DNA from: an uncultured Desulfospira sp.
GTDB taxonomy: Bacteria > Desulfobacterota > Desulfobacteria > Desulfobacterales > Desulfobacteraceae
Reading direction: 5' to 3'
DNA length: 64,000 nucleotides
Assembly: GCA_963663165.1 (NCBI GenBank)
Contig: OY760175.1
Coordinates: 160,001 to 224,000, forward strand
The notes beneath the pieces are model-generated. The model saw nothing but the letters and a program-made list of their open reading frames with translations. It did not search any database and had not been told where the DNA came from. Of the stretch, positions 50,421 to 64,000 are shown one piece after another (position 1 is the first letter of the stretch; each line of letters starts with the position of its first letter). Made by a program: the position numbers and the translations under genes.

Positions 50421-50497
50421 GCGCCCGTAGCTCAGCTGGATAGAGTACTTGACTACGAATCAAGGGGTCGGACGTTCGAATCGTCTCGGGCGCGCCA
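50421..50497 (+). tRNA. tRNA-Arg(ACG)
   Basis: GCGCCCG...CGGGCGC-GCCA; anticodon arm CTTGA-CTACGAA-TCAAG; GTTCGAATC. Confidence 0.97.
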
Positions 50498-50554
50498 TAA
50501 ACGATAAGGGTTTTCAGGTTTTGGCTTGAAAACCTTTTTTGTTTTCAAACATGA

Positions 50555-50580
50555 TTTTGCCCACTTTTTGCCCACTTTTT
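50555..50580. repeat. Tandem direct repeat, putative tyrosine-integrase arm-binding sites
   Basis: TTTTGCCCACT x2, about 60 bp from the tRNA end. Confidence 0.6.
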
Positions 50581-50949
50581 TAATCATATGGACTGGTCTT
50601 CATGGCTTGAAAATATTTCCCCAAGAAAAATGGGGTCCTTATTTAGATTGGGCCGTCAAAAAAGGGAAGGGGGCACCAGGACACCCCGGATTAGGCCAAA
50701 AATCAGCCTCCACCCTCCAGGGTGACCGGCGGGGGCTGGTCAAAAATGTAAAGGTTAAGCAAGAAAAGTGCCGCTCTGTATCCATTGGTAGTCAAGCTAT
50801 TTCAGTTACGGCATGGATCATGCTTAACATTTACATTACTTTATAATCAATATGTATGTGAATAATGAACCGCCGCGTAAAATTTTTGATCAAGGCAGGG
50901 TTTCTGCCGGATTGGGAACCGCCCCTTCCACCCGTCCGTTTTTGGGCAT

Positions 50950-50983
50950 AAAAAAGCCCCTGGCAGCGGATACCACCAGGGGC
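50950..50983 (-). terminator. Intrinsic terminator closing the element's leftward operon
   Basis: Minus strand GCCCCTGG...CCAGGGGC then T6. Confidence 0.8.
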
Positions 50984-51005
50984 CTGATAGGGGTTTAGGA
51001 ATTAT

Positions 51006-51344
51006 TTACGAGTTCAACACCTGCCGGATATTGGAAGCCACGATTTTAAAATCCCAATCTTCCTGGCCTTCCTCCATCTGCCTGGCCAGACCATCCAGGA
51101 ACCTTTCAAGCCGCTCTGTCCGGGCTAATTCTGATTTGTTTATCTGTTTTTTCAGTGAAGCTACGACATCATCCATACCAACGACCATATCATCCAAGAA
51201 TCCAGCTAAAGCCCTCAAACAATCAAAATTTTGAATTGCATCCATATTTTTGGAATGGAATAAGACGGTTGATAGGAAATACATTTTTTGATTTATGCCG
51301 ACGATGTCATCATATGTGGTCCTTAGGGGATTAGATGTTTTCAT
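51006..51344 (-). CDS. Hypothetical protein
   Basis: ORF overlapping the upstream stop, RBS GGAGG. Confidence 0.6.
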   Translation of the reverse strand: MKTSNPLRTTYDDIVGINQKMYFLSTVLFHSKNMDAIQNFDCLRALAGFLDDMVVGMDDVVASLKKQINKSELARTERLERFLDGLARQMEEGQEDWDFKIVASNIRQVLNS

Positions 51345-51747
51345 ACTGCACCTCCAATCTTTCAACCTGAGCCCGGAAATCCGCAATCAGGTCCCTTAAT
51401 ATGTCATGGCTTGCCTTTTCCGGCAGAGAGGCAAAGAAACCCTTGCACAGGTCCTTGTATCCCTTGGCTTTCATTTTCAACTTTGGGTATTCACCAAGTT
51501 GTTGTCTCCACTGCTCATTGGAAATATCGATCAGATATTCAATCTCCTCACAAGCGTCTTTGAGCGAACCTGACAGGGTAAGAATATTGTCTTGATTAAT
51601 GACGTTGCCAGTTACAAGCTCCTCTTTGTCCAGGCACCAAAGCATGTCAGCCAGCAATTTTATCTTTCCTATTGGGTGGCATACTTCGGCAAAGATATCA
51701 TAGTGGTTCAACAGCTCTTCTTTTGTGAAATCGGCTTTAATTTGCAT
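51331..51747 (-). CDS. Hypothetical protein
   Basis: ORF coupled to both neighbours, RBS AGGGGG. Confidence 0.6.
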   Translation of the reverse strand: MQIKADFTKEELLNHYDIFAEVCHPIGKIKLLADMLWCLDKEELVTGNVINQDNILTLSGSLKDACEEIEYLIDISNEQWRQQLGEYPKLKMKAKGYKDLCKGFFASLPEKASHDILRDLIADFRAQVERLEVQYENI

Positions 51748-52327
51748 GACTGACACCCCCTTGTTCACTTTTCCATTTTTCTATCTCTTGGGGGAAGGCA
51801 TACCAAAATTTTCGGCCAGGGATCTTGAAAGCCGGCAGGCCTTTTTTATTAACAAAAAGCTTTATCTTATTATATTCAATACCAGCAGCCTTTGTTATTT
51901 CCATTGTGCCTCTAAGAATGGTCATTTCTTCGGGTGGCGAGTTTGGGAACGGCATTCTGTTTGCTTCCACTTCCTTTTTCCGGAAATCGAAGGTAATGAC
52001 TTTTGCATAAGGGATCTCATCAAGCTTTTTTTCTTGACGTTGTATTTGATCTCTTAGCATTTCTGCTAATTCATCCCTGGTTTTCTTAAAAAACCCCTGG
52101 GGAACTCCTGCACAAGATTCTATCCGATTACCACTGAGATCTGTTCCCGAAAATTCCAAGCCAAGAACACAAGAATGCATTGAAATTTTCATCAATTCTG
52201 ACAAGAGATTTTTAGCAGAATGGATATCTTTTTCAAGTTTCTTTGCCTCTTCTCTACGTTCATATGTTCTAAGAGGAAGTTGTTCTCTAATCTTATATCT
52301 ATATTTTTCCATGCCATAAGCGCTCAT
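51737..52327 (-). CDS. Hypothetical protein with a C-terminal excisionase-like HTH
   Basis: G..EI....G......V..KGLPAFK....W.A....IEKW pattern. Confidence 0.55.
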   Translation of the reverse strand: MSAYGMEKYRYKIREQLPLRTYERREEAKKLEKDIHSAKNLLSELMKISMHSCVLGLEFSGTDLSGNRIESCAGVPQGFFKKTRDELAEMLRDQIQRQEKKLDEIPYAKVITFDFRKKEVEANRMPFPNSPPEEMTILRGTMEITKAAGIEYNKIKLFVNKKGLPAFKIPGRKFWYAFPQEIEKWKSEQGGVSHAN

Positions 52328-52722
52328 TATTCCCTCCTTTCTGCAATTATTTTCAATTCCTTCATTACTTCAGGGGAAACGACCGGATGCTGGTCAGGAA
52401 AGCACTCATCATACTTCCGTTCAATGAAGCGCTTGGCGTTCTCGTAATAAAATGGGTGATCGTCTCTTAATATTCTCATTAAAGGAACAATGTAATATTC
52501 CGGATTCTCCCCTCTGGCTTTTTTTCTCTGGTACAACACTTCAGCATAAATTGATTTGATCACTTCTTGATCGTGTCCCATATCTGATAGTTTTATCAGC
52601 CAAAGGTAATCATTTTCTGTTTCTTCCTTGGGGTGTTTTTCTTCTGGAAATGTTGATTGTTTTGAAAAAGGGATGATCTCAGTTTGATTGACAGGTGTTC
52701 GTGGTTTCTGACAAGATTTCAT
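52327..52722 (-). CDS. Hypothetical protein, first gene after the C4-like RNA
   Basis: RBS GGAGG before ATG 52722. Confidence 0.6.
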   Translation of the reverse strand: MKSCQKPRTPVNQTEIIPFSKQSTFPEEKHPKEETENDYLWLIKLSDMGHDQEVIKSIYAEVLYQRKKARGENPEYYIVPLMRILRDDHPFYYENAKRFIERKYDECFPDQHPVVSPEVMKELKIIAERRE

Positions 52723-52744
52723 TTGTACCTCCAAAAACAAAATG

Positions 52745-52810
52745 GGGGTTAGGTGTCTCAAGGTTTCAGAAAAACCTTTGCGGTCCTTTCGGATTGCGCC
52801 ACCATACCCC
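52745..52810 (-). ncRNA. Putative C4/CI-like antisense RNA (three-way junction)
   Basis: Outer stem GGGGT..GGTG/CACC..ACCCC; TCC-GAAA-GGA hairpin; AAGGTTT-TTCTG-AAACCTT hairpin; complementary target at 52872-52886. Confidence 0.6.
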
Positions 52811-52893
52811 AATTATATTTTGAGTACTGCATATACAAATAAATATACCGGATTAACGGCCCGGTTCACCGTTCTGAATTTTGAGAGGTCTCC

Positions 52894-52922
52894 ATTCTCA
52901 TAAAATTTGGGCATGGTGTCAA
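52894..52922 (-). promoter_or_regulatory. Sigma70-type promoter for the C4-like module
   Basis: TTGACA-17 nt-GAGAAT. Confidence 0.65.
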
Positions 52923-52978
52923 GGCTTAATTTTGTGGCTCATATTTTCGGGATTATGATCCACAAACAGAATTGAGGT

Positions 52979-53194
52979 TCATTCATTAACACCAAACCGC
53001 CGCTCCAGCCGGGGAAAAACCTTCAACAGCAGCCGGGTACATTTCAGGGCCTCTTCCCGGATCACTGCCGGGTCTTTCACTTGGCCGCTGTTATCTTCCA
53101 TCTGGGGGCAACCGGAGCAATCAAATCCGGCGCTGTCTTCAATGGCGGCCCGGGTCAGGCAATCGTTATACTGAGAACACCATATGTTTCTCAT
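52979..53194 (-). CDS. Small Cys-rich hypothetical protein
   Basis: RN..C..Y..CL..AA......FDC..C. Confidence 0.55.
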   Translation of the reverse strand: MRNIWCSQYNDCLTRAAIEDSAGFDCSGCPQMEDNSGQVKDPAVIREEALKCTRLLLKVFPRLERRFGVNE

Positions 53195-53203
53195 TGGCCC
53201 CCA

Positions 53204-54580
53204 TCAGGCCGCCAACCTGCTCAAAATTCCCTGGTTTTCATATGTATAATTACGGCTCTTGGCTGATGCCGCAAAGACAGGGTTCAACCCATCCACAAAG
53301 TCAAAAATTACAGCCTTATCTTTTCCGGGTGCTGGCCGGAGTGCCCGGCCTATGTACTGGATCAGGCGGCCTGAAAATTTAACCGGCGTTGCCAGGAACA
53401 CAGTGGATATTCCCGGCAGGTCAAACCCTTCTCCGATAAGCTGGCCTGTGGCAATCAGGTAACGGCATTCATCATTCTGCAGGGCCTTGATTATCCGTTC
53501 CCGGTCACTTTTGGTGGTGGCTCCGGTCAATACCTCAGCCTGAATTCCATGGGCATCCTCCAGGATATTTTTAAGCACCTGGCAGTGTTCTTTTCTGTCA
53601 GACAGAACCAGGCTGACACCATGGCCGTTATTCTCGGCAACCGTCCTGCAAATCAACCGGTTCCTGGTTGAATCTTCGGTCAGTTCTGACAGGGCCTTAG
53701 AATAGAACTCGCTGGCATCCACAAAGGGAGAAAATCCGGTCTTAATCCATTTGACCTCTGCCGGGCAAAGGTTGCCGGCCTGGACAAGGTCCTGCTTATC
53801 AATCCTGCCGGCAACGTCCCCGACGTGCCAAAAGATGACCTTTGAAAGTCCGTCACGTCTCCAGGGGGTAGCCGTGAGCCCAAGCAAGTACTTACAGTCA
53901 AAGGCGGTCACGGCATCGGTAAAGGTCCTGCTCGAAACTCTGTGGCATTCATCCACAACCAGGTGGCCGATATGGGGAACAACATCATCCACCCGTTTGA
54001 AAAGGGTCTGAACCGTGGCAACGGTGATCCGGTCCCCGATGGTGAACTTACCGCTGCCGATTATGCCGATTTCATCTCGGGGGATTCCCAGGAACTGTTC
54101 AATCCGGTCAATCCACTGGTTCAAAAGTTCCTTGGTATGAACGATGATAAGCGCCGGCTGTTTTCGCTCAGCAACCAGGTAAAGGCCCATGACGGTTTTC
54201 CCGGCACCGGTCCCGGCTTCAAGTAACCCTGAGTCACGGGAAAGAATCCCATCAACCGCCTGCTGTTGCAATGGCCGGAGCTTTCCCTGAAACTGGAATT
54301 CAGCCGGAGCTAGGATCCTACGTTCGTCAATTATCCGGATATCTTCACCCATTCGGGTACATAAAAAATAAAGTTGCTTTGCTGCCCCTCTGGGACAGGC
54401 CAGGAAGTCCGGAGCCTCATGATAAAATTTCAACTCCCGATCAATTCCCCAGGTGGCCCGGCCCATTTTTTTTGCTTCGGCATATTTAGGATTGGGCATG
54501 GTCAAACGCCGTTTGACTGCTTCCCGGGTTGCCGGATTCAGGCCGGTTAAAATTGCCTTGCTGTTCAGTTTAAATATCAT
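53204..54580 (-). CDS. Superfamily 2 DEAD/DEAH-box helicase (ResIII/UvsW-like)
   Basis: LRPLQ, AGTGAGKT, DECH, GLTATP, EGFD, QYIGRALR. Confidence 0.92.
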   Translation of the reverse strand: MIFKLNSKAILTGLNPATREAVKRRLTMPNPKYAEAKKMGRATWGIDRELKFYHEAPDFLACPRGAAKQLYFLCTRMGEDIRIIDERRILAPAEFQFQGKLRPLQQQAVDGILSRDSGLLEAGTGAGKTVMGLYLVAERKQPALIIVHTKELLNQWIDRIEQFLGIPRDEIGIIGSGKFTIGDRITVATVQTLFKRVDDVVPHIGHLVVDECHRVSSRTFTDAVTAFDCKYLLGLTATPWRRDGLSKVIFWHVGDVAGRIDKQDLVQAGNLCPAEVKWIKTGFSPFVDASEFYSKALSELTEDSTRNRLICRTVAENNGHGVSLVLSDRKEHCQVLKNILEDAHGIQAEVLTGATTKSDRERIIKALQNDECRYLIATGQLIGEGFDLPGISTVFLATPVKFSGRLIQYIGRALRPAPGKDKAVIFDFVDGLNPVFAASAKSRNYTYENQGILSRLAA

Positions 54581-54584
54581 GCTA

Positions 54585-57446
54585 TCAATCCCCTACTCCC
54601 AACAAAGAAAGCCCCTCAGCATTGGCTGTGACCTGGGCCATTTCCATAATTTCCTGGAAAATCATCTCCAAGGCCGGGGCCAGGGCAGATGATTCAACCT
54701 GTATCCCTATCGGCTCCCCGCTTTCGATCCGGGCGGCCTGGGCATTGGCAAGACGGGTTTCGGCAGCCACAAGGCTTTCCTGCATGTTGATTTCTTTTTC
54801 CAGGAGATCGTAAAGCTCATAGAAATGAGCCCCGCCGCCCTCTGACAGGCTCGAAAACATAGTGCTGACCGTATCGGATGTTGCTTCAATTGCCACCCCA
54901 AGGCTTTCCATGGTGGCCTTGACTTGTTCAGTTTCAGCTTCAAGTGAGGCAATGTTCAGCTTTGCATCCCATTCAATAGCGGTGTTCATGGTGTCAGTTA
55001 GATTGCCGAACATATTTTCAATTGTCTCAAGTTTTGCCTTATCAAGCTCGGTCTGAATCTCTAACGTTTTTGCCGGTTCTAAAGTTTCCTGAATATCTTT
55101 AGTGGCCTTGGTTGCTGATGTCATATCCGCCTCCACTGTATAGGAAACGGTTGTGCCGTCCTCAAGCTCAACTTCCAAGGTCTGCCAAGCCTTTTTGGCC
55201 TCTTCTATGGGATCAGTTTTTACGGCGATATCAACGATTTTTTCTCCCGGGATTTCTTCAAGCATGGAAATGGCGGCCTTGAGTTCTCCGGCATCTATCA
55301 ATGATTGAACCAGGATCTGTTTTTCTTCGGGAAGATCTTGCAGGCCATTGTAAAGGGTTCCCAGATCCCCCATGGATACGTTGGCAAAAACATCAACCTT
55401 TTTTTCATCCGGGATATCGGCCAGGGTCCCGTTTATTGAGTTGAGATCCGAGTTCAGGCCGTCAATCCCGGTCATTTCAATCTTGGATTCTTTTTTTTCC
55501 GGGATCTTATCTAATTTTTTGGGAATGGCTTCGATCTTTTCGACCGACTCAGCAGCGGTGTCATTCAGTTCAGTGAAATTGACCTTCATGCCGGTGAGTT
55601 TTTCCGTTGCGGCTGATGCGGCATCGTACATTGCCTTTTTAGTCTCAGTTTTCCAGCTTTGCACCTTAGTGATATTCTCTTCGATATCATCCGAGAATGC
55701 ACCAAACATGAACGTCTTTGAAAACGTGTTCCCGGCAAGCATGAGATCCTCAACGATTTCAAGGAATGCAAGCTTTAGCGTGTTCCAGCCAAGTTTCATT
55801 GTTTCCAAGGCCCCTGAAATGGTATTGATAACCACATTGAACACGGGGGCAAGGTTATCCGCAGACTCTGACATTGCAAGAATAATTGCCGTGAATTTTG
55901 GGCCGAACTCAACAACAGCTTTAGAGAGTGCAAGGATTTGCCCGGCGGCTTCCTGGGTCTCTGTTTTAAGCTCGTTGAAACTGCTGATTGACCCTTTGAT
56001 GGATTCCCAAAAAGGTTTGAACCCGTCCACCATCCCGGCAGTGGTGTTCAACAGACTTGATATCGTGTTGAGAACGCCTTGAAGTGCTTCTTTCAAACCT
56101 TCCGAAGTAGTCAAATCAACATCGCTGAACAGGCCTCTAACTGAATCTTCCAGGTTTTCAAAGGAGTCAATCAGGTCCTTAAACTCAATTCCTTCAAAAG
56201 CTTCCGGCAGGTTCTTAGCGATTGCTTTTAAATCAGCCCCAAGCTGATTCCCAAATTCATTGATTTTCTCGAAAATTTCATCAAAAGTGCCGTCCTTCAC
56301 CATCTGCTGTAAAGCGAGAACAATTGAATTCCCGCCGTTAATGACGTTTTTAGAGGCATTTTCAAATTCGGTACCGATCAGGGTAGCCAGGTTTTCCAGC
56401 CTGGCCTTGAGTACGTCAACAGCATGTTCTGCTGACCCAAAATAACTTTCAAGTTCCTTGGCTGCTGACCCGGCAGCGCCCATGGCCGTTTCCGTTACCT
56501 CAAGGGTTTTATTCATTGAGGAAAAGGCCAGGGCCATCTTTGCCGCCTGGTCTTTTCCGACAAGTTGCTGGGCGTAATACGTTTTTTCAGTGTCGGTCAG
56601 GTTTTGGAAAACCGCCTGAACCTCATAGAAGATATCCCGGCCGGACTTCATCTGGCCGTTTACGTCGGTCTGCGATATCCCGAGTTCGGCCAGGGCCTGG
56701 GTAACCCGGGGCGTGTCTGATGTTAAATTGAGAAGGCCTGTTCTAAATGCCCGGCTCACCTCATCCCCAGAACGGAAAACCTCAATTACCGGTGTGAGAA
56801 TGCCGGCTGTTTCCTCAAATGAAAAACCCATCTGTGAGGCAATCGGGGAGAGATCGGCCATGCCTGTGGCAAGCTCTTCCACATTGGTGGCGTAGTTGTT
56901 GGAAGTTTCATTCAAGATATCAAGCAGCCGGTTCGCTTCTGATGCAGGAGAACCAAAGCCCTTCAAAGTGGATACCAACAGGGCACTTGCTTCTGATGCG
57001 TCAACGCCGCCCACGATAACAAGGTCCATGGCATTTTTGGCAAGCTGCATGGCTTCCTCAACATCATACCCGGCCTGTTTGAAATTGGCTGTGGAATTGA
57101 GAATATCTGATGCTGATTGCCCATACTGGTTTGACAGGTCGATAGCGGCATCTTGGGCTATTGCCAGGCTTTCCGGGGTTTCGTCCCCAAGGACTTTGTT
57201 TAGTTCAACCGCTGCGCTTTCAAACTGCATGGCTTTGGTGAAAGCATATGCCAGGCCACCAACCGCCATAGCTGACAAGGCGGCATCCGCTTTAATGACC
57301 CCATCGGCTATATCCGCAAAGGGATCAGCCACGGAACCCACTATGCTTTCAAAACTACCCAGGGTCCCGGACAAGGAGTTTATGGTCTGGCTGACCTGAT
57401 CGTCCCCCTGGAACAATATTTTTACGGTTTTCTCAAGATCGCCCAT
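54585..57446 (-). CDS. Phage tail tape measure protein (TP901-family core)
   Basis: 953 aa, helical; A..FE.....NK, A....Q.G....EA, N.YATNVEELA.G, G.....AFRT.L..L pattern. Confidence 0.85.
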   Translation of the reverse strand: MGDLEKTVKILFQGDDQVSQTINSLSGTLGSFESIVGSVADPFADIADGVIKADAALSAMAVGGLAYAFTKAMQFESAAVELNKVLGDETPESLAIAQDAAIDLSNQYGQSASDILNSTANFKQAGYDVEEAMQLAKNAMDLVIVGGVDASEASALLVSTLKGFGSPASEANRLLDILNETSNNYATNVEELATGMADLSPIASQMGFSFEETAGILTPVIEVFRSGDEVSRAFRTGLLNLTSDTPRVTQALAELGISQTDVNGQMKSGRDIFYEVQAVFQNLTDTEKTYYAQQLVGKDQAAKMALAFSSMNKTLEVTETAMGAAGSAAKELESYFGSAEHAVDVLKARLENLATLIGTEFENASKNVINGGNSIVLALQQMVKDGTFDEIFEKINEFGNQLGADLKAIAKNLPEAFEGIEFKDLIDSFENLEDSVRGLFSDVDLTTSEGLKEALQGVLNTISSLLNTTAGMVDGFKPFWESIKGSISSFNELKTETQEAAGQILALSKAVVEFGPKFTAIILAMSESADNLAPVFNVVINTISGALETMKLGWNTLKLAFLEIVEDLMLAGNTFSKTFMFGAFSDDIEENITKVQSWKTETKKAMYDAASAATEKLTGMKVNFTELNDTAAESVEKIEAIPKKLDKIPEKKESKIEMTGIDGLNSDLNSINGTLADIPDEKKVDVFANVSMGDLGTLYNGLQDLPEEKQILVQSLIDAGELKAAISMLEEIPGEKIVDIAVKTDPIEEAKKAWQTLEVELEDGTTVSYTVEADMTSATKATKDIQETLEPAKTLEIQTELDKAKLETIENMFGNLTDTMNTAIEWDAKLNIASLEAETEQVKATMESLGVAIEATSDTVSTMFSSLSEGGGAHFYELYDLLEKEINMQESLVAAETRLANAQAARIESGEPIGIQVESSALAPALEMIFQEIMEMAQVTANAEGLSLLGVGD

Positions 57447-57456
57447 GTTTCACCTC

Positions 57457-57789
57457 TCAGTTCAATGTTTTTTGGGAAGGGGCCGGAGCGCCCCCGGTTG
57501 ATACAATTCGTTCGTGGATTTCTGAAATCCAATCCCGACAGATTTCTTTGATTTCCGGGGGAGCATCTTTTTTATCAATTTCGGCAAGGAACCTTTCTGA
57601 CACTTTTTGCATATGCTCCCCGATAGGCGGAAACGCTTTCATAAGGGCACCGTGTACCCATGCTTCAAAATGGGCGTTGGCTTCAAATTTTGCCCTCAAG
57701 ATTGCCAAGTCTCGGGCCTGGAGAGCGATCGCGGCCCTCAGTCCTTGTATCTGCTTTTCAAGCCGTTCTATTTTTTCTGAATCTGACAT
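57457..57789 (-). CDS. Hypothetical protein immediately upstream of the tape measure gene
   Basis: 110-aa ORF, RBS AAGGA. Confidence 0.6.
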   Translation of the reverse strand: MSDSEKIERLEKQIQGLRAAIALQARDLAILRAKFEANAHFEAWVHGALMKAFPPIGEHMQKVSERFLAEIDKKDAPPEIKEICRDWISEIHERIVSTGGAPAPSQKTLN

Positions 57790-57879
57790 TTTTAATTCCT
57801 TTTACCGTGTGTGGGCATAGACCCTGATCCATCCCGTTTTCCGCCGGAAGGGTCAGGGCCTATGCTGAATCTAAAAATT

Positions 57880-58356
57880 TTACGCTTCCAGCGCTTCGAT
57901 TCGGGCATAAAGTTCAGCCAGGGCACCCTCGACGGTCGTCTCATCTGTATGGGTGTCGGCATCGGCTATCGAAACGGCTGAAGCAGTCGTGAATGCGACT
58001 TTTAGTCTGACGGCTTCAACGATATCCCCGTCTGCCGTGGCCTCTTCCAGGGCAATAAACTGGGCTGCGCCGCTGGAAGTCCCGGACACTTTCCCGTCTG
58101 CGTCACCGTACAGGGTGGCCCCGATGGAAAAGGCGGCCGCTGCGACAACCAGACAGGTTTTCATCTCAACGGTTATTGCATCCCCTTCTTTTTCGTTCGA
58201 TGCGGTAAGACCGATATAGGCCTCTCCGGCATCGGCATGAACAACTTCAAGGGGGATTGTTGTTGTCCCAGATTTAACCTTAACTCTGCGGTTGGCAATC
58301 AGATTCTCACCGGCCACAAAAGACTTGCCTCCAAGGTTGTAAACAGATTGTGTCAT
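57880..58356 (-). CDS. DUF2190-like head decoration/capsid cement protein with a fibre-like tail
   Basis: SF.AG..L...RRVK, A..G...IG, G..LY..ADGKV, G/F.ALE.AT.DGD.VE; C-terminal VEGALAEL. Confidence 0.7.
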   Translation of the reverse strand: MTQSVYNLGGKSFVAGENLIANRRVKVKSGTTTIPLEVVHADAGEAYIGLTASNEKEGDAITVEMKTCLVVAAAAFSIGATLYGDADGKVSGTSSGAAQFIALEEATADGDIVEAVRLKVAFTTASAVSIADADTHTDETTVEGALAELYARIEALEA

Positions 58357-58396
58357 GGTTCATCTCCTTATTTGGGATTGAGTTTATTAAAGAGGG

Positions 58397-58693
58397 CTAT
58401 TTCCCCTCGATATAAGCGGCGTGGAGCCCAGGCCATTTTTTAGCAATAGCCTTCAAGGCTTCGGTTCTGGTGCAACCCTCTATTTTTTGGTAATCATCAA
58501 CAATTTCCATGAAGGTGTGCTTTGGCTTTTCTTCATGGGAATTGCCTGTAGTGCCTTCGAGTTTGTTATTTTCCTGGATAAACGCTTCGTGAAGATCCGG
58601 ATTCTCCATGGCGATCACGGATAGTGCCTCAGTCCTGGTACAGTCTTTGCTCTTTTGGTAGTCCTTAACCATTTGCATGAATGTCTGTTTCAT
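58397..58693 (-). CDS. 98-aa protein made of two ~36-aa repeats; scaffold C-terminus-like
   Basis: TFMQMVKDYQKSKDCTRTEALSVIAMENPDLHEAFI and TFMEIVDDYQKIEGCTRTEALKAIAKKWPGLHAAYI. Confidence 0.65.
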   Translation of the reverse strand: MKQTFMQMVKDYQKSKDCTRTEALSVIAMENPDLHEAFIQENNKLEGTTGNSHEEKPKHTFMEIVDDYQKIEGCTRTEALKAIAKKWPGLHAAYIEGK

Positions 58694-58891
58694 ATCAAAA
58701 AATCCTTTTATTCCTGTTCTTGTTGTGTGCTGGCTGACCAAACGGCCAGCCAGCATGAAAGGAGACCTGGGGAACATTCTATCCCCAGGCGACTCATAGA
58801 AATGGACTAAGCCAGCAATGCTCCAAAGAGCTGACATGTAGCCCCCGCCTTATTATCTTAAAGGGGGCAGGCCGGTGTGCCCCCATTGTGG

Positions 58892-59488
58892 TTAACCGCC
58901 AAGTTTATCAATGGCCATTCGTAGCTCACGCTGCCGATTCTGCAGGGCGTCAATTTCAGCAGGCAAGCTGATTTTTCCTTCTCGGGCGGCTTTAAATGCA
59001 CCGCTAAAACACGCCCTCTGCTCGTCCGACAGTCTGTTAAAAAGAGCTGGTAAATTGAAAACGATTCCGATCTCACCAAAAACTTGAGTAACTTGAGCGG
59101 CGGCCTCACCGAAGTTTTTCAAGGCATCAGGGGCCAGGGTTTCCTTTTGTTCACGAAGGGCCGCTATTTTTTCCCCGATTTCCTTGAGTTCGGAATCGTT
59201 TTCAAGATTCACGGTGCCGGTATGGATCCTTTCCAATTTAACCAGGGCAGCCCCAATGGTGGGGATACGATCTTCCAGGGACAGCCTTTCAGATTCCATG
59301 GTTTTGATTTCCTTGGTCGCAGGTTTATCCAAGTTTTCAATTTTTGCGACTTCAATCTCATTTTCGATTGTATTGAGCTTCTCTTCGGCCTCCATTTTGG
59401 CAGCGGAAAGGGCATCGATTTCTTCCTGGATCTCAATAGAGGTGAAATCCCCTTCGCCTGACAAAATTTGTTTTAATCGGTCACTCAT
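58892..59488 (-). CDS. Coiled-coil hypothetical protein
   Basis: Heptad-rich E/K/L sequence, RBS AAGGAG. Confidence 0.7.
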   Translation of the reverse strand: MSDRLKQILSGEGDFTSIEIQEEIDALSAAKMEAEEKLNTIENEIEVAKIENLDKPATKEIKTMESERLSLEDRIPTIGAALVKLERIHTGTVNLENDSELKEIGEKIAALREQKETLAPDALKNFGEAAAQVTQVFGEIGIVFNLPALFNRLSDEQRACFSGAFKAAREGKISLPAEIDALQNRQRELRMAIDKLGG

Positions 59489-59510
59489 GCTTTCTCTCCT
59501 TTTTTGGGGT

Positions 59511-59735
59511 TTATTTTTCTGTTTCTATGCTTTTGAACCTGGTTCCGCATCTTCGGCAAAGGTGATACCTCACTCGGATTCCATCTTCCCACGGCAAGGT
59601 ATTTGTCGTTGTTTGGCCGGGAAGTTTTTTAAGATCCGTTTTGCACTTGGGACACTGAACTCCGCTCACTCGATCAAAGCTCACCCCATCAAGTGGGGCT
59701 TTTGATTTTCTTCTTTCATTGGTCTCTGCTGCCAT
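59511..59735 (-). CDS. Zn-ribbon protein (Ogr/Delta- or NrdR-N-like)
   Basis: CPKC...R.RYH.C..CG.RFKSIE. Confidence 0.65.
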   Translation of the reverse strand: MAAETNERRKSKAPLDGVSFDRVSGVQCPKCKTDLKKLPGQTTTNTLPWEDGIRVRYHLCRRCGTRFKSIETEK

Positions 59736-59777
59736 GTCGCCACCTTTTTTTGAAATTTGGTTTAAGGAATGGTCCCT

Positions 59778-60269
59778 TCATGAGTGCCGTTTAACCTCGT
59801 CATCGGACAAAGTAAGCTCAGAATCGGCAATAATATTCCGGCATTCAGCAATTGATTTTTTCACGAGCGTTATCTGGTCCCCGGTGATCTCCGGCCAGTT
59901 CCTTTTCATGACCAAGGGAATGGATTCAAGAATAGGAATGATCTGGTTTGCGGATTTTTCCAAGGCATAGGTAAGGAGTGAGACAGGGGCAATCTTTTGT
60001 TCTTCAAGGTCATTTTGCCGTTTCTTTTCCCGGTGCTTTTCTTTTTCCAGAAGGGCTGAATAGTCACGATCGTCAAGCTCTTCGGAGTCACACTCCCGGA
60101 CCTGGCCGGAAGAGACTCCCCTCAAATATTTGATATATGCTATGCGGCAAGCGTCAAGATCATACCCGCCCGGCCCTTTGCTGGAAGGGAGTATCCCGTC
60201 TTTAACAAGACCCCTTACCCGGCGGGGGGTCAGGTCCAAGTGGTCTGCTATTTCTTGTTGGGTTGCCAT
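59778..60269 (-). CDS. Terminase small subunit, lambda Nu1-like
   Basis: wHTH TQQEIADHLDLTPRRV..L...G, YDL..C..AYI.YLR, then a coiled coil. Confidence 0.8.
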   Translation of the reverse strand: MATQQEIADHLDLTPRRVRGLVKDGILPSSKGPGGYDLDACRIAYIKYLRGVSSGQVRECDSEELDDRDYSALLEKEKHREKKRQNDLEEQKIAPVSLLTYALEKSANQIIPILESIPLVMKRNWPEITGDQITLVKKSIAECRNIIADSELTLSDDEVKRHS

Positions 60270-60499
60270 TTCCGCTCCCTTTTTTAATAATTTATAGAGC
60301 CAAATCCTGATTTTTCTCTATTATTCTTGATTATCCATGGTTATTTGAATTTAGTATTATTTCGAATAGCCTGTGGGTATTTCTTCCTTGGTTTGCAAGG
60401 ATTAACCCTGAGAGTTCCTAATTTTCGATTTAAAGCCCGTTGTATTTTTTGATGCATAAGTTCTCGCTTCGTCTTCTATTCGATTATTTGCCCACTTAA

Positions 60500-60590
60500 C
60501 CGGAAACGGAAACGGATTTTTTGAGGGTCGTAATTAGAAAAATATCGCGCCTTGCCGACCCGTAATAAATTAGGCCCTTGGAAGGACCCA
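60500..60590 (-). other. Lambda-like cos packaging site (cosQ-cosN-R3-like)
   Basis: Minus strand GGGTCCT, 17 nt, TTACGGGTCGGCAAGGCGCG, then CCGTTTCCGTTTCCGG; upstream of terS. Confidence 0.7.
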
Positions 60591-60621
60591 AAAGCTCTGA
60601 TTTGCTCTAAAATTCTCAATT

Positions 60622-60813
60622 TTACTCTCCTTTCCGATTGCCATTTTCCAGGAATTTTCTCAAAACCAAAAATTTTCTGAAAACTTCAATTTCATTTTTA
60701 ATCCGGAGCAACTCAATATCCAGCCGTTCAAGTCCACCTCCACAAGGAAGAGAATTAACCCTGTCTTTTAAATTTGTGATCCGGCCGTTGATTTCTGCTG
60801 TGAGTTTGTCCAT
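60622..60813 (-). CDS. Small hypothetical protein
   Basis: 63 aa from MDKLTA, RBS GAGG. Confidence 0.5.
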   Translation of the reverse strand: MDKLTAEINGRITNLKDRVNSLPCGGGLERLDIELLRIKNEIEVFRKFLVLRKFLENGNRKGE

Positions 60814-60843
60814 ATTCGCCCTCAAATATTTAATTAAAATTTG

Positions 60844-60955
60844 CCTCCCCAAATGACCTCCCCATTTCCCCACCCCCCTAAAGGGGGGTTGGGGTAAAAT
60901 GGGGAATTGTCCTCATTCTTCCCCATTGGGGCTATTTGGGGTATTTTGGGGAGCC
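60844..60955. repeat. CCCCA/TGGGG short-repeat cluster around a palindrome; putative replication origin
   Basis: CCCCCC-TAAA-GGGGGG hairpin flanked by CCCCAAAT/CCCCATTT and ATTTGGGG/AATGGGG units at the helicase 3' end. Confidence 0.55.
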
Positions 60956-62445
60956 ATTTCAAAGTAAGGAGTATTGACTTTTATACCTTCTAACTCACTT
61001 AAATAATTGAAATATCTATTCCAATGTTTTAACGGCATCCCCTTCGAAACAGCTTCGTCTTTGATATCCTGAATCAACACTTTTGCCCCATTTGGGGAGA
61101 AACCACTTTTTTCAAGATTTCGACGCTGTTTTTCAAAAAGATCCATCAAAATGCCCTGGCAAATTGCCTGCCATTTTCCCTGCTTTTTGACGGGTGTTTT
61201 TTTAACAGGTGCCTGATATCCGATCGGGTCTAAAATGCCGCCGGTGATCTCCTGGCCCTCTTCATCTTTGATACCAAGTTCAACCGACCGAATTTTGAAA
61301 GCCATGGGTGCAGGCGGTTCAAAATCTTTCATCTTTGTATTGGTCATCCGCACCACGCCTACATCATCTTTTTCAAGCCGGTATTCTGCATCCAGGGCAC
61401 CTTTTAAAGCCATGGCTCCCCGGCCCCTGGATTTATCCCCATGGCCGCTATGATGGATCAAAACGATAGCACAACGATACTTTGTCCTGATTGCATCCAA
61501 GGAAGCGATAAACGATGTCATTTCCTGGGTGCTGTTCTCATCACCAGGGCCAAAGTTACGGGCAAGTGTATCAATGAATATGGCCGCCGGTTTTTCTCTG
61601 GTACCATCAACGGCAGCCTCGACAATAGGAATAGATGCCGGATCACAAAAACTTGCCGGCGCCGTGGAAACAAACAGGGAGACAGACTCAAAGGAAACCT
61701 GGTGCCGAATCTGCCATGCCTGAAACCGTCTTCTTAGGCCATTTTGACCCTCTCCCGCGATATACACTACCGGCCCGGCGTTGACTCCCGTGCCATGGAA
61801 ATCTGTCCCTGTGGCGATACAGCAGGCCAAATCGACCCCTATGAAAGTTTTTCCACATCCCGGGTCACCAAACCACTGAGAAAGAGAGTCTCTCTCAAGG
61901 AGACCAGTTACAAGCCAATCAGGAGTTTTGCATTCAAGCTTCGAAATTGGGGTAAGCCGAAATAGTGTCTCTGAAGACAGTGAAAGGTTGTTTGTTTTTT
62001 CCCGGATTAAAGCCAATAAATCATCGACAGATTGCCCTGATCCCGCCCCACTGACTAAACATGACCCAAGGGCTGCAATCGCCCTTTTCACAGCACAATT
62101 TTTGATGATTTCGGCATGCCCGGCAGGATTCAGGGAGATGGGTGCCCTGTCTGCTATCTTTGCAAGCAATGAAGCGCCACCAGCCTTATCAAGCTCTCCG
62201 GATTCCTTGAGCTGATTCGCCACTGTGACCAGATCCACCCCGGCACCCTTTGATTTAAGCGTTAGGATTGCCTTAAATATCAACTGGTGTGAAGTCTGGT
62301 AAAAATGGCCCGGTTCCAAGCTGTTTACAATGCCGTCCAAGGCCTTGACACCCATGACAAAAATCGCGGCCAATAATCTATCTTCGGCGTCCAGGTCCTG
62401 GGGCGGTTGGATGATCGGGTCAGGATTATAGGCCAGCATATTCAT
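60913..62445 (-). CDS. DnaB N-terminal domain fused to an AAA_25/RepA-like helicase
   Basis: PPQDLDAE..LL, FY...HQLIF.AI, VDLVTV; GDPGCGKT, YIAGEG, IDTLAR, DENS, IHHSG, RG..AL. Confidence 0.85.
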   Translation of the reverse strand: MNMLAYNPDPIIQPPQDLDAEDRLLAAIFVMGVKALDGIVNSLEPGHFYQTSHQLIFKAILTLKSKGAGVDLVTVANQLKESGELDKAGGASLLAKIADRAPISLNPAGHAEIIKNCAVKRAIAALGSCLVSGAGSGQSVDDLLALIREKTNNLSLSSETLFRLTPISKLECKTPDWLVTGLLERDSLSQWFGDPGCGKTFIGVDLACCIATGTDFHGTGVNAGPVVYIAGEGQNGLRRRFQAWQIRHQVSFESVSLFVSTAPASFCDPASIPIVEAAVDGTREKPAAIFIDTLARNFGPGDENSTQEMTSFIASLDAIRTKYRCAIVLIHHSGHGDKSRGRGAMALKGALDAEYRLEKDDVGVVRMTNTKMKDFEPPAPMAFKIRSVELGIKDEEGQEITGGILDPIGYQAPVKKTPVKKQGKWQAICQGILMDLFEKQRRNLEKSGFSPNGAKVLIQDIKDEAVSKGMPLKHWNRYFNYLSELEGIKVNTPYFEMAPQNTPNSPNGEE

Positions 62446-63080
62446 TTTGCCCCCCCGATATTGGGACTTAATATCTGCGGCATCGGATTTGTCTTTGGCG
62501 AGCGATCGACTAACCTATCATACAGCCTTGCTGCCTGGCTCGATCGTTCCATTATTCGGGTCGGATAGTGGGGTAGTCGGTGTCCTGTTATGGCAAGGTA
62601 TCGGCCATGTTCGAAAATCTTAACCGGCCCATTGCTCCGTCCTTCGGGGGGGAGCGATCCCTTGATAAGGGTTCTTAATCCGGTTCCGCTCGGGCTTATC
62701 TCCGAGTAGGAAAACAGTCTGTTCAAGATTTCCAAAGCCCATGATTCGATGGCACCTGTTTGTGGATCTCGGCAGTCGTTTAAATCGAAAACAACAAATG
62801 GATCTTTAAGGGCCAGGGCGAAACTCAACCCGGTAAAAGCGAGTTTCTGACAATAAATGAAAACATCACAGACCTGTTTAAAGGTTCCCAAGGGATGAGG
62901 GATGAGGGCATCGACATTCCTTCCAAGGTACGAATATGGAATTTCTGTCCATTTTTTATCCTGTTGCTTAGCCTTCCACAGAATCCACTGGTGGTGAAAC
63001 CTGAGTTCTTCGGGGATGTTTTCCAAGACAGGACATAGCCAGGCGGGCTCCATAACTTCTTTCTGGCCTGGCATCAGCAT
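62442..63080 (-). CDS. Primase-polymerase (prim-pol)-like domain with degenerate catalytic motifs
   Basis: IPEEL...QW..W, DPFV.FDL.DC, SYSEISPSGTGL, RY..ITG. Confidence 0.75.
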   Translation of the reverse strand: MLMPGQKEVMEPAWLCPVLENIPEELRFHHQWILWKAKQQDKKWTEIPYSYLGRNVDALIPHPLGTFKQVCDVFIYCQKLAFTGLSFALALKDPFVVFDLNDCRDPQTGAIESWALEILNRLFSYSEISPSGTGLRTLIKGSLPPEGRSNGPVKIFEHGRYLAITGHRLPHYPTRIMERSSQAARLYDRLVDRSPKTNPMPQILSPNIGGAK

Positions 63081-63175
63081 GTGGCCTCCACCATGGCAAA
63101 AAAAATCAGTGCCGCCAGCACCGCCGGATCAAGCTTGACACAAGACAAGTAATTGATTATATTGAAATAAATCAT
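63074..63175 (-). CDS. Putative 33-aa leader/hydrophobic peptide overlapping the prim-pol start
   Basis: MIYFNIINYLSCVKLDPAVLAALIFFAMVEATC; G-rich RBS; below the ORF-track cutoff. Confidence 0.45.
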   Translation of the reverse strand: MIYFNIINYLSCVKLDPAVLAALIFFAMVEATC

Positions 63176-63218
63176 CTCTGTTCCCCCCATGCGCCGGTTG
63201 CCGCCGGCGTTTTGTTTT
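63135..63218 (+). ncRNA. Putative short antisense RNA unit (promoter + about 50 nt + terminator)
   Basis: TTGACA-17 nt-TATATT at 63135-63163; CGCCGG-TTGCCG-CCGGCG-TTTTGTTTT at 63192-63218. Confidence 0.55.
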
Positions 63219-63433
63219 TACATAAACGCAACGGGACCGCAGCCGTTGGAATCAAGGTTTTGCATATAACCTCTACGGAAAGGTAGACCATGTTTGTCTG
63301 CGAGATCGTTCCAACGGGATCGCCAGATTATGGGGGGGAGTTCTTCGATAACTTCTGTCCAGTCGGTTTCCGGGAACCGGCTTTCCAAAAATTTTCTTAC
63401 CGCTGATTTGGGATAATGAATTGCTAACGCCAT
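63218..63433 (-). CDS. Excisionase/AlpA-like small protein, possibly C-terminally short
   Basis: LPPII.R...G.....Y..NLDS.G.GP motif. Confidence 0.5.
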   Translation of the reverse strand: MALAIHYPKSAVRKFLESRFPETDWTEVIEELPPIIWRSRWNDLADKHGLPFRRGYMQNLDSNGCGPVAFM

Positions 63434-63608
63434 AAAAAAACCTCCTGTACCTTGCACTTGTGAAAGAAAATCAACCACAATGGCAGGATATAGGAGGTTT
63501 ATGATTATAAGGAGTGTCTAAGATTTTAAAAATTTATTTTGTCAGTGACAAAAGTATAGGTGTTTTTATTTGTCACCTTTGATTGGGTGCAATCCCATTT
63601 AGTCTAAC

Positions 63609-63785
63609 GTAAAAACCCTGGCCCTCTGGGCCAGGTCAGAGTGCAGTGGCTTTGCCATCTGTACGGCTCAATGCTACTCAATACTCGAAGTTGTCCCCAC
63701 AACGAGGAGTAAGGAGTAACAAATGAGCCGATTTAAAAAGCTATCACAGACAATATGGTGTTGCCAATATCATATTGTCTGGGTC
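63609..63785 (+). mobile_element. Left end of an IS200/IS605-family element
   Basis: Subterminal hairpin CCTGGCCC-TCT-GGGCCAGG (63617-63635), RBS AAGGAG and tnpA start. Confidence 0.75.
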
Positions 63786-63800
63786 AGTGCTGACGCATGA
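63723..63800 (+). pseudogene. tnpA: IS200/IS605 TnpA N-terminus, interrupted
   Basis: MSRFKKLSQTIWCCQYHIVWV, then unrelated SADA-stop instead of the expected PKYR. Confidence 0.75.
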
Positions 63801-64000
63801 ATAAAAAAAGGTTGGCTTTAGTCGATCTAACCACTCCCTTTGGGGGGAGATCCAGCCTTTTTTAATTCAAAAAGGCAGTCCTTCAGACACTGACTATGGC
63901 CGAAACGAAAGACGGTCCTTCGGTCCGAACATAGCGTTCCCACCTCTCTGCTTGGGAGAGTGTTTTCGATTACCCGTCCGTCGTTGCCGTCATACTAATC

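Follow-up and report, generated by a model that had tools for sequence, protein, structure and literature searches.

A putative phage satellite with its own cos region, small terminase, and tape measure in an uncultured Desulfospira sp.

We analyzed a 64,000-nucleotide stretch of a genome assembly from an uncultured Desulfospira sp. (GenBank GCA_963663165.1, contig OY760175.1, positions 160,001 to 224,000), referred to here as the window. The contig is a single 6.74-Mb sequence (G000:C1), and the window is G000:C1:160001-224000. An original prediction, made from the letters alone, had singled out positions 50498 to 63600 as a phage satellite of a possibly new type, consisting of one co-oriented gene run that ends beside a tRNA-Arg gene. 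The gene run is real. All of the genes named are on the minus strand, between 51006 and 63478, and the run ends next to a tRNA-Arg(ACG) gene (50421-50497, plus strand; ARAGORN), which is the integration target. Profile matches were obtained for the proposed prim-pol primase, replicative helicase, lambda Nu1-like small terminase (TerS), tape measure, and superfamily 2 (SF2) helicase, and 10 of the 17 open reading frames (ORFs) lacked a Pfam family at an expectation value (E) of ≤0.01. The proposed span covers only part of the element, because the island ends at 72494, past the window. Positions beyond 64000 are given in window numbering (adding 160000 yields the genome position); the extended loci L001 and L079 correspond to window positions 62001-82000 and 52801-72800, respectively.

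Extension of the contig revealed both of the features whose presence had been anticipated, i.e., an integrase gene and a duplicate of the 3' end of the tRNA-Arg gene. An exact-word scan of the genome located the 67-bp duplicate at 72428-72494 (L001 10428-10494), about 8.5 kb past the window. It is identical at 67 of 67 positions to the core at 50451-50517, and the two copies are the attachment (att) sites attR and attL. Because these repeats bound it, the island measures 21,977 bp as integrated, att to att; it is about 16.7 kb once two recent insertion sequence (IS) copies are discounted. The tyrosine integrase gene (71018-72382, minus strand; PF00589, E = 4e-31; likely start near 72259) adjoins attR. 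Two tandem TTTGCCCACTT repeats lie at 50555-50580, and the same pair is present at 72279-72302; these pairs, one in each arm, are candidate arm-type integrase sites. A genome of the same genus (G406) has an empty site, in which the tRNA-Arg gene is followed, about 210 bp on, by the right-flank gene (protein 92% identical), and the right flank of the island aligns to G406 from exactly 72428. The att repeat, the integrase, the arm repeats, this empty site, and the replication genes and iterons described below together mark a discrete mobile element. Contigs from public sequencing runs (7 runs, 2 studies) represent the integrated form with both IS copies, identical in X1 and X3 (one run per study); contigs cannot reveal excision. 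No RNA run carrying the stretch was listed among these 7 runs.

An int-alpA RNA motif (RF02996; 70228-70309, minus strand; Rfam, 39.2 bits against a cutoff of 35.8) sits between the integrase gene and a 242-aa ORF (69483-70208, minus strand; no AlpA family match), as in layouts resembling those of phage-inducible chromosomal islands (PICIs). The 242-aa ORF was considered as the counterpart of a 266-aa ORF beside the int-alpA motif of another island (L036), and this was rejected, as the two had no similarity. The replication module comprises the prim-pol primase (62442-63080, minus strand; phrog_13901, E = 2.5e-32; no Pfam match) and the replicative helicase (60913-62445, minus strand; DnaB N-terminal domain, 7.6e-24; AAA_25, 1.5e-35). 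The ori-like tract noted earlier was confirmed as an iteron-like cluster at the 3' end of the helicase gene (60847-60951), a candidate origin. The window contains 34 matches to CCCCAWWW, five of them within these 105 bp, in inverted order around a G/C palindrome. An 83-aa ORF that overlaps the cluster (60622-60873) is doubtful. The 86-aa ORF at 63218-63478 (minus strand) had been called xis-like; it matched no family in Pfam, PHROGs, NCBIfam, or PADLOC, and the label was dropped.

The TerS gene (59778-60269, minus strand) is of the lambda Nu1 type (PF07471, 35.1 bits against a cutoff of 30; phrog_57, E = 1.6e-27). The cohesive-end (cos) region lies at 60500-60610 (minus strand), with a TTGGGTCCTTCC hairpin and a presumed cut about 30 nt downstream (around 60550-60556). 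That this is a cos-like site, as had been proposed, is supported by homology. More distant phages in IMG/VR have TerS proteins 41 to 47% identical to that of the island, each followed by a large terminase (TerL) of 630 to 690 aa; among these, two viral contigs, of 47 kb and 4.8 kb, terminate at one and the same aligned position some 30 nt past a shared GGGTCCTT motif, which is what genome ends at cos would give. Furthermore, terS plus about 340 bp upstream shares 75.6% nucleotide identity with the region upstream of and including terS in a prophage of G406, a stretch that takes in the TTGGGTCCTT hairpin and the TTACGGGTCG.CAAGGCGC stretch. The two TerS proteins are 77% identical, with 68% over residues 1 to 60 (the DNA-binding part) and 94% over residues 101 to 152. 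The C-terminal part of lambda Nu1 contacts the large terminase. An own TerS with a homologous cos region agrees with the packaging hijack by which PICIs are recognized.

The G406 prophage is located on a second contig of the genome that has the empty site (G406:C2), where it was found through a PF10145 match. It spans 47.9 kb, is att bounded at a transfer-messenger RNA gene (31-bp repeat, integrase adjoining), and has the order TerS, TerL, adaptor, portal, protease, decoration (phrog_49), capsid (phrog_29), Neck1, tube, tape measure, and tail tip. The size ratio of island to prophage is 0.35, and the ratios of Staphylococcus aureus pathogenicity island 1 (SaPI1) to 80alpha and of P4 to P2 are similar. 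By homology, this prophage is a candidate for the helper type. A lambdoid cos phage of the kind that had been expected as helper, with closely related cos, TerS, and tape measure, is thus present in the same genus, but none is co-resident. As a side observation, six plus-strand ORFs (395, 62, 462, 431, 136, and 166 aa) lie between TerL and the head-tail adaptor of this prophage (G406:C2, approximately 101800-106800; L092/L093) and run against the direction of the late operon.

The tape measure gene of the island (54585-57446, minus strand; 953 aa; PF10145, E = 7.3e-42; phrog_4211, E = 3.2e-56) is intact. Its product is 58% identical overall to that of the G406 prophage, and the identities per 100 residues are 65, 80, 100, 58, 41, 15, 21, 35, 88, and 94%, i.e., 65 to 100% over residues 1 to 300, 15 to 21% over residues 501 to 700, and 88 to 94% over residues 801 to 950. 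The corresponding values for the tape measures of other phages are approximately 50, 50, 57, 40, 40, 25, 20, 25, 32, and 40%. Judged by these identities, the ends are common to the G406 phage lineage and the middle is unrelated. Tracts of nucleotide homology with the prophage (59818-60607, 56460-57448, and 54593-55072) stop at the ends of terS and of the tape measure gene. The ratio of nonsynonymous to synonymous substitution rates (dN/dS) was 0.20 for residues 1 to 340 of the tape measure (dS, 0.78), 0.12 for its last 150 residues (dS, 0.63), and 0.08 for terS (dS, about 2); by this measure (0.08 to 0.20), both the terS and the tape measure tracts are under purifying selection. Residues 201 to 300 contain 10 synonymous and no nonsynonymous changes (dS, 0.15), a pattern suggestive of exchange at a later date. 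Tape measures of islands and of phages do not form separate groups but are interspersed in a tree built from the N-terminal 450 residues. Tail length had been proposed as one of the properties that the island sets. Because satellite and phage tape measures are similar in length (828 to 956 aa), we do not favor the setting of tail length as its purpose. In two of the public data sets (X3 and X6), contigs at 13 to 17 times the depth of the strain's own contained stretches that were ≥90% like the conserved tape measure ends (L079 1953-2139 and 3756-4008, i.e., window 54753-54939 and 56556-56808), and one joint skips 462 nt; the samples may thus have contained a related phage or satellite in high abundance.

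Between terS and the tape measure gene lie five ORFs, all on the minus strand, three of which resemble head genes or their neighbors in related phages. The proposed Zn ribbon protein (59511-59735) has weak zinc-ribbon matches only and is 52% identical to an ORF between TerL and portal in the phage-type locus L047; the homology extends to 59768, and the start may be further upstream. The proposed DUF2190-like protein is a 158-aa head decoration (cement) protein (57880-58356; DUF2190/Phage_cement_2, PF09956, E = 8.1e-5). Its score of 23.4 bits is just under the cutoff of 24, but it is 67 to 70% identical to the ORF just before the major capsid gene in L047. The remaining two are orphans. For the 198-aa coiled-coil ORF (58892-59488), a word-limited search found no homologue among 5.8 billion clusters, and there was one chance coiled-coil match in genome contigs. 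Its AlphaFold model had a mean predicted local distance difference test (pLDDT) score of 63.8, with nothing at E ≤ 0.001 in a Foldseek search against the PDB. A relationship to Psu (Atlas score, 0.90; rank 21; low recognition) was rejected, as the fold search was unsupportive (3RX6 at rank 50; E = 1.5). The 110-aa helical ORF directly before the tape measure gene (57457-57789) gave no match in a homologue search and nothing at E ≤ 0.001 in a fold search of BFVD (model pLDDT, 73.7). It is unrelated to the pre-tape-measure ORF family of the phages (hhalign probability, 0.3%), and no tail assembly chaperone is therefore recognized.

What had been described as a double-repeat protein does contain two copies of a module but is better read as a 98-aa product (58397-58693, minus strand) starting at M49 of a longer ORF (open to 58837), where public gene calls likewise start. 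Both halves align with a stretch of ~45 residues at the C-terminal end of the S49 prohead protease/scaffold found in related phages. An exhaustive HMMER search returned 64 cluster representatives at E ≤ 1e-3 (query included), many with both repeats. These comprise about 12 stand-alone proteins of 96 to 117 aa that match nearly the whole query and many long proteins with the module at the C terminus. Because 12 of 15 long relatives scanned bear a protease domain (9 Peptidase_S49, 2 ClpP, and 1 Mu protease I domain; 3 had no family), the module is, by homology, the C-terminal part that prohead proteases have in common with the scaffolds nested in them. Such nested protease/scaffold arrangements are known from lambda (C/Nu3) and Mu (I/Z), and we regard the 98-aa protein as a Nu3/Z-like stand-alone scaffold piece. 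The idea that the tandem motif is an invention of satellites was rejected, as the matches with both repeats include prohead proteases. Cofolding of the 98-aa protein with the L047-type capsid protein scored 0.39 against 0.00 for the best control; the runs agreed in ≥46% of contacts, and the partner pLDDT was ≥69. Of 157 solved complexes, 116 attained this mark, as did 2 of 215 mismatches; however, only 18 of the 157 passed with a score of ≤0.60, whereas both passing mismatches did so. The model thus weakly suggests binding to a capsid protein of this type. A stand-alone module without a protease invites an analogy with CpmB of SaPI1, whose C terminus is near-identical to that of the helper scaffold and which is reported to bind capsid protein and compete with the scaffold (Dearborn et al., eLife 2017, PMC5644958).

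The island contains no TerL, portal, protease, major capsid, connector, tube, tail-tip, or lysis gene. The original prediction reported no broken remnants of structural genes, and this was borne out: when all related phage and island proteins were compared with the island by tblastn (E ≤ 1), TerL, portal, capsid, and tube gave nothing better than E = 0.05, and significant matches were confined to TerS, Zn ribbon, double motif, cement, tape measure, integrase, and one helix-turn-helix (HTH). Nor did terL, portal, capsid, or tail genes appear past 64000, where their presence had been feared. The virion gene set is incomplete, as expected of a satellite. A defective prophage would be expected to leave gene fragments; none were detected at E < 0.05, and phage homology stops at gene boundaries. 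In the whole genome, PF05876, PF03354, PF03237, PF04860, and PF05065 had no match, and PF10145 had one, in the island. A tblastn search of the genome with 28 structural proteins of related phages gave two matches only (E = 0.07 to 0.1). Because both searches were empty of significant matches, we conclude that there is neither a co-resident helper nor a scattered prophage remainder. A supposed second phage region at approximately 658 to 662 kb, with a 63% identical SF2 helicase paralogue and an S49 peptidase, was dropped, as it lies among genes for ribosomal protein S1, SppA, TsaC, and cytochrome c3.

A tape measure search covered 401 genomes of the order (G000 included), of which 37 had a match. 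Fifteen loci around the best matches were fetched, and one annotation round covered 52 of their 84 ORFs, from loci other than L040 and L041. Seven loci are of phage type (L033, L035, L039, L043, L044, L045, and L047), four are small islands, and four (L040, L041, L042, and L046) were left unassigned. L044 has the lambda order TerS (phrog_57), TerL (phrog_15), adaptor, portal, S49 protease, decoration, capsid, and Neck1, followed in its tail part by a 330-aa tube-position protein (phrog_30644), a pre-tape-measure ORF, tape measure, and tail-tip genes. All four small islands have an integrase and a tape measure without TerL or portal, and three have a D5_N primase. Their contents are as follows: G162, integrase, capsid-protease fusion, xis, tape measure, and D5_N primase; G246, integrase, ligase, tape measure, motif protein, primase, S49 protease, Neck1, and xis; G343, integrase, xis, Neck1, tape measure, and primase; G322, integrase, small ORFs, and tape measure. 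Both att sites were found for three of the four, at tRNA-Leu, tRNA-Leu, and tRNA-Arg(CCT), giving sizes of 12.4, 15.9, and 16.2 kb. No gpA-type TerL was found in any of the four island genomes, compared with three in a phage-bearing control (G124).

Twelve further loci came from metagenomes (5 phage type, 2 islands, 3 too short, and 2 distant). The closest sibling of the island, L070, has the order primase, helicase, SF2 helicase, TerS (phrog_57), TerL, two ORFs, tape measure, small ORFs, and tRNA-Cys; its helicase, SF2 helicase, and tape measure are 40, 53, and 47% identical to those of the island, and portal, capsid, and tube were not found within its 15.4 kb. The other, L072, has the order tRNA-Glu, integrase, capsid/protease-like ORF, and tape measure. 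There are thus six further small islands with a tape measure but without the TerL-portal-capsid set, four in same-order genomes and two on metagenome contigs. Full prophages from which the island could have arisen by deletion at its gene junctions had also been a concern. The full-phage relatives are distant (34 to 77% amino acid identity; dS, 0.6 to 2), and because of this distance and because the shared tracts end at gene boundaries, they are not deletion parents of the island.

Several features of these related loci are recorded here in their own right. The 12.4-kb G162 island contains a c4-2 antisense RNA (RF02944, 51.4 bits against 41; L034 4038-4111, minus strand), a family of P1/P7-type immunity RNAs. 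An int-alpA RNA motif (51.8 bits) is present at the attR end of the G246 island (L036 17301-17369, minus strand); were the island circular, the motif would be facing the integrase with attP between them, and the ORFs downstream of the motif are unrelated between this island and the Desulfospira island. The G322 and G343 islands have a phosphoadenosine phosphosulfate (PAPS) reductase-like gene (PF01507, E = 1e-19, at L038 15918-16889 in G322) and an M41-peptidase-like fragment downstream of the tape measure gene, which may be cargo or defense genes. Oddities were also seen on the phage side, at L043 2-1258 (G193:C107) and L044 595-1197 (G304:C27): one of this pair has a reverse transcriptase gene (phrog_1423, E = 4e-115) just upstream of the tube-position gene, and the other has group II intron RNA domains alongside.

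The island shares features with several known kinds of satellite. Like PICIs, including cos-packaged SaPIs, it combines an integrase, a putative regulator region, primase and helicase, a candidate origin, and a packaging module with its own TerS, and its size is about one-third of that of its helper type. The integrase, int-alpA RNA, 242-aa ORF, prim-pol, helicase, and iterons may represent a PICI layout, with IS insertions interrupting the region. In contrast to PICIs, no AlpA or Stl homologue was recognized, and classic PICIs have no tape measure or decoration protein. The 98-aa protein resembles CpmB of SaPI1, as described (PMC5644958), in being small and sharing the C-terminal capsid-binding module of a helper-type scaffold; however, it is a copy of the widespread protease/scaffold module and not a CpmB homologue. 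P4 is alike in its cos homologous to that of the helper, its lack of a capsid gene, its decoration protein (Psu), its primase-helicase, and its integration at a tRNA gene, but it lacks TerS and a tape measure, both of which are present here. No family matches to the P4-like core genes Sid, Psu, Delta, Eps, or alpha-type primase were obtained in the island. Capsid-forming PICIs (cf-PICIs) likewise have phage-derived head-module genes in phage order within a small integrated island, but the TerL, portal, protease, and major capsid protein that they encode are all absent from the island.

To our knowledge, satellite-encoded tape measures were not known until 2025-26, and experimental proof exists only in a Vibrio myovirus system. 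In that system, the PLEs (elements that resemble phage-inducible chromosomal islands) PLE11, PLE1, and PLE4 are described as carrying tape measure (tmp) and tail assembly chaperone (tac) genes, PLE11 also a baseplate hub gene (Mathur, Boyd et al., Nature 2026, PMC12987554). According to the same report, the PLE tape measure replaces that of the phage ICP1 in particles, giving chimeric tails 10 nm shorter, and the legend to its Extended Data Fig. 10 notes putative tmp genes in PLE-like elements and cf-PICIs. As described there, PLEs are likewise capsid-less with an own tape measure and obtain tube, tail tip, and capsid from the helper; tape measure length also differs from that of the helper, by 95 aa in PLE11 compared with 71 aa in the island. 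The PLE tape measures are given as ~20% identical to that of ICP1, whereas in the island's, divergence from the helper type is limited to the middle, the two ends being 65 to 100% identical. The island's tyrosine integrase at a tRNA gene, prim-pol replication, cos with Nu1-type TerS, and temperate siphophage helper type also set it apart, and no chaperone, baseplate hub gene, or Rta homologue was found in it. It lacks the markers by which PLEs are recognized (tmp-tac pair, RepA_N-type initiator, large serine recombinase, and ICP1-like myovirus helper). It does have an intact tape measure under purifying selection, which may be used in chimeric tails as in PLEs.

EPIPs, satellites of Mycolicibacterium aichiense, are described in a bioRxiv report of December 2025 (PMC12822802) as encoding TerS, a scaffolding protein, and a tape measure without tail genes or holins, and their particles as having small capsids and an altered tail length. 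By that description, which is the basis of our comparison, they share TerS, scaffold, and tape measure with the island and differ in their serine integrase, head-to-tail adaptor and stopper, actinobacterial host, and extracellular lifestyle that induces the helper prophage. Since PLEs (PMC12987554) and EPIPs (PMC12822802), as far as these reports describe them, carry a tape measure, a satellite-borne tape measure is a known idea, and the claim of a new satellite type has been overtaken. What is new here is that cos, Nu1-type TerS, a tape measure, a cement protein, and a scaffold piece are combined in the absence of capsid, portal, TerL, or another tail gene; that the tape measure resembles the helper type at its ends and differs from it in the middle; and a named candidate helper type together with sibling islands in one order. 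A literature search linking phage satellites with Desulfobacterota found no relevant paper.

We consider it likely that the island is an integrated phage satellite of lambda-like cos siphophages, either functional or only recently disabled by IS insertion. Upon helper infection or induction, it would excise and replicate. Its TerS would bind the satellite cos via the diverged N-terminal DNA-binding part and recruit the gpA-type TerL of the helper via the conserved C-terminal part (94%), and capsids built by the helper would receive the island DNA. These capsids may be resized and stabilized by the scaffold piece and decoration protein, the island being 0.35 of the helper-type genome, a SaPI/P4-like ratio. 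The tape measure, different in its middle, would dock to helper tail parts through its helper-like ends and be built into helper tails, giving chimeric tails as in PLE11.

Several observations weigh against this interpretation. The public contigs show the integrated form only. No excisionase or AlpA was recognized in the island, no tail assembly chaperone was found in it (hhalign of the 110-aa ORF), two ORFs of its structural module (198 and 110 aa) are orphans, and neither a helper nor a structural gene of any tested phage family was found in this genome. The main loose end concerns the head genes. The Zn ribbon, scaffold piece, and cement protein have no homologue in the G406 prophage; they are of the L047 head type (capsid phrog_1005), whereas the phage matched by the cos region, TerS, and tape measure has capsid phrog_29. 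Either the true helper would combine these modules in a mosaic that has yet to be seen, or a different helper would be the target of the head genes. The dN/dS values cover both lineages since their split, satellite and phage together. The recurrence called for by the original prediction applies to the logic, which recurs in other genomes, but not to the gene set, which is heterogeneous; moreover, the small islands were found with the tape measure as bait, so its constancy among them is partly by design. Finally, two recent IS copies and an IS200-like gene lie between the 86-aa and 242-aa ORFs. They increase the size of the island by a third and may have disabled its regulation.

It is unlikely, in our judgment, that the island is instead a decayed prophage, a lambda-like remnant left by deletions and incapable of an independent life. 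The head and tail genes that it retains do stand in phage order (TerS, [TerL], Zn ribbon, [portal, protease], scaffold piece, decoration, [capsid to chaperone], tape measure; missing genes in brackets), IS elements have accumulated, the genome has no helper, and two ORFs are orphans. However, at least four separate losses would be required, each ending at gene boundaries without a fragment, and all retained genes are full length relative to their homologues. The cos-terS and tape measure tracts have dN/dS values of 0.08 to 0.20 at dS values of 0.6 to 2, and the att cores are identical (67/67), the arm sites paired, and the integrase intact. Replication by prim-pol and helicase is of the satellite type and recurs with SF2 helicase, TerS, and tape measure in L070. 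Three other att-bounded islands of 12 to 16 kb follow the same logic in genomes without gpA-type TerL, and the size of 0.35 of the helper type also fits a remnant poorly.

Other explanations accept a mobile element but not the use that we propose for its virion genes. A real satellite might deploy the tape measure, and perhaps the head genes, mainly to sabotage helper tails or heads and not as part of its own particle. Satellites commonly interfere with helper assembly, Rta of PLE11 being described as blocking the helper's tape measure (PMC12987554), and helper tails could take up, and be spoiled by, a tape measure whose middle is foreign and whose ends resemble those of the helper's; the mismatch between the island's head genes and the head type of the candidate helper would also suit this use. 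The known precedent nonetheless is structural, because deletion of tmp in PLE1, PLE4, and PLE11 is reported to lower their own transduction by 96 to 99% (PMC12987554). The tape measure is of normal length (953 aa, compared with 841 to 956 aa in relatives), and sequence alone cannot separate the two uses; we consider sabotage improbable. Least probable of all, and by our estimate very much so, is another integrative element, such as a replicative genomic or defense island, that acquired phage genes by recombination and transfers independently of phages. An integrase, a primase, a helicase, partial PADLOC matches of the SF2 helicase, and small ORFs at the tRNA end would be in keeping with such an element. 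Yet cos and TerS would be useless without a phage packaging motor, no complete defense system was recognized in the island by PADLOC, the SF2 helicase has a housekeeping paralogue, and profile scans of the island found no conjugation genes.

As a satellite, the island would be a tractable siphophage case in a bacterium very different from Vibrio. Its mosaic tape measure marks, by near-identical ends and an unrelated middle, the parts that must match the helper, and the cos/TerS packaging hijack, scaffold piece, and decoration protein are all within one 16.7-kb element. Together with the six further small islands, it suggests that satellites widely resort to manipulating the tail core. Such islands would escape the satellite finders now in use, which are keyed on capsid, AlpA, or P4/PLE markers. 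More tentatively, the order may hold a guild of tRNA-integrated satellites of 12 to 17 kb in which the tape measure, its ends helper-like and its middle swapped, is the one constant virion gene; we regard this as possible but doubtful. If it holds, the satellite would replace the first-ejected, envelope-opening protein instead of remeasuring the tail. It could thereby escape helper- or host-encoded blocks on the helper tape measure (superinfection exclusion or Rta-like inhibitors), or it could couple satellite-modified heads to satellite-marked tails. The present island would add to this a stand-alone C-terminal protease/scaffold module by which capsid size is redirected, a mechanism convergent with CpmB.

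The remaining genes of the run lie toward the tRNA end. The SF2 (ResIII/DEAD) helicase (53204-54580, minus strand; ResIII, E = 4.3e-26) shares 53% identity with its counterpart in L070 and 63% with a paralogue that lies on the chromosome among housekeeping genes; its PADLOC matches were partial only (PbeA, 7.2e-31; type IV restriction enzyme, 3.8e-26). Then come, at 51006-53194 (minus strand) and in DNA of 38 to 42% GC, five small ORFs (126, 145, 196, 161, and 71 aa), and the run closes with a strong hairpin terminator (50985-50954). The C-terminal HTH of the 196-aa ORF resembles that of a small ORF after TerL in related phages (tblastn, E = 8e-11).

At the other end, IS-A (63785-66561, with 63785-64000 in the window; L001 1785-4561) is a 2,777-bp element with a transposase and a DruA-like ORF. 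It has a 9-bp target duplication (TGTCTGGGT) and is inserted within an IS200-like tnpA gene, whose two parts lie at 63765-63784 and 66562-66943 (L001 4562-4943). The genome contains at least 9 further copies of IS-A (99.7 to 100% identity) and a single copy of the IS200-like Y1 transposase gene. IS-B (67037-69497; L001 5037-7497) is 2,461 bp, with a DruA-like ORF and an ISKra4-family transposase, and at least 8 full copies exist in the genome, also at 99.7 to 100% identity. Three IS events are thus nested in one intergenic region of the island. The transposases are of 508 aa (IS-A, with DDE_Tnp_1_assoc) and 466 aa (IS-B), and each is paired with an ORF of ~290 aa that matches the Druantia DruA family (PF14236; E = 3e-40 and 3.5e-36), an odd passenger for an IS element. 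Elsewhere in the genome (G000:C1, approximately 651 to 662 kb; L062), a 1,401-aa SNF2 helicase (DpdE/ZorD type; PADLOC, E = 2.4e-176) is encoded beside an IS-A copy, upstream of rpsA and SppA, and may be part of a defense system.

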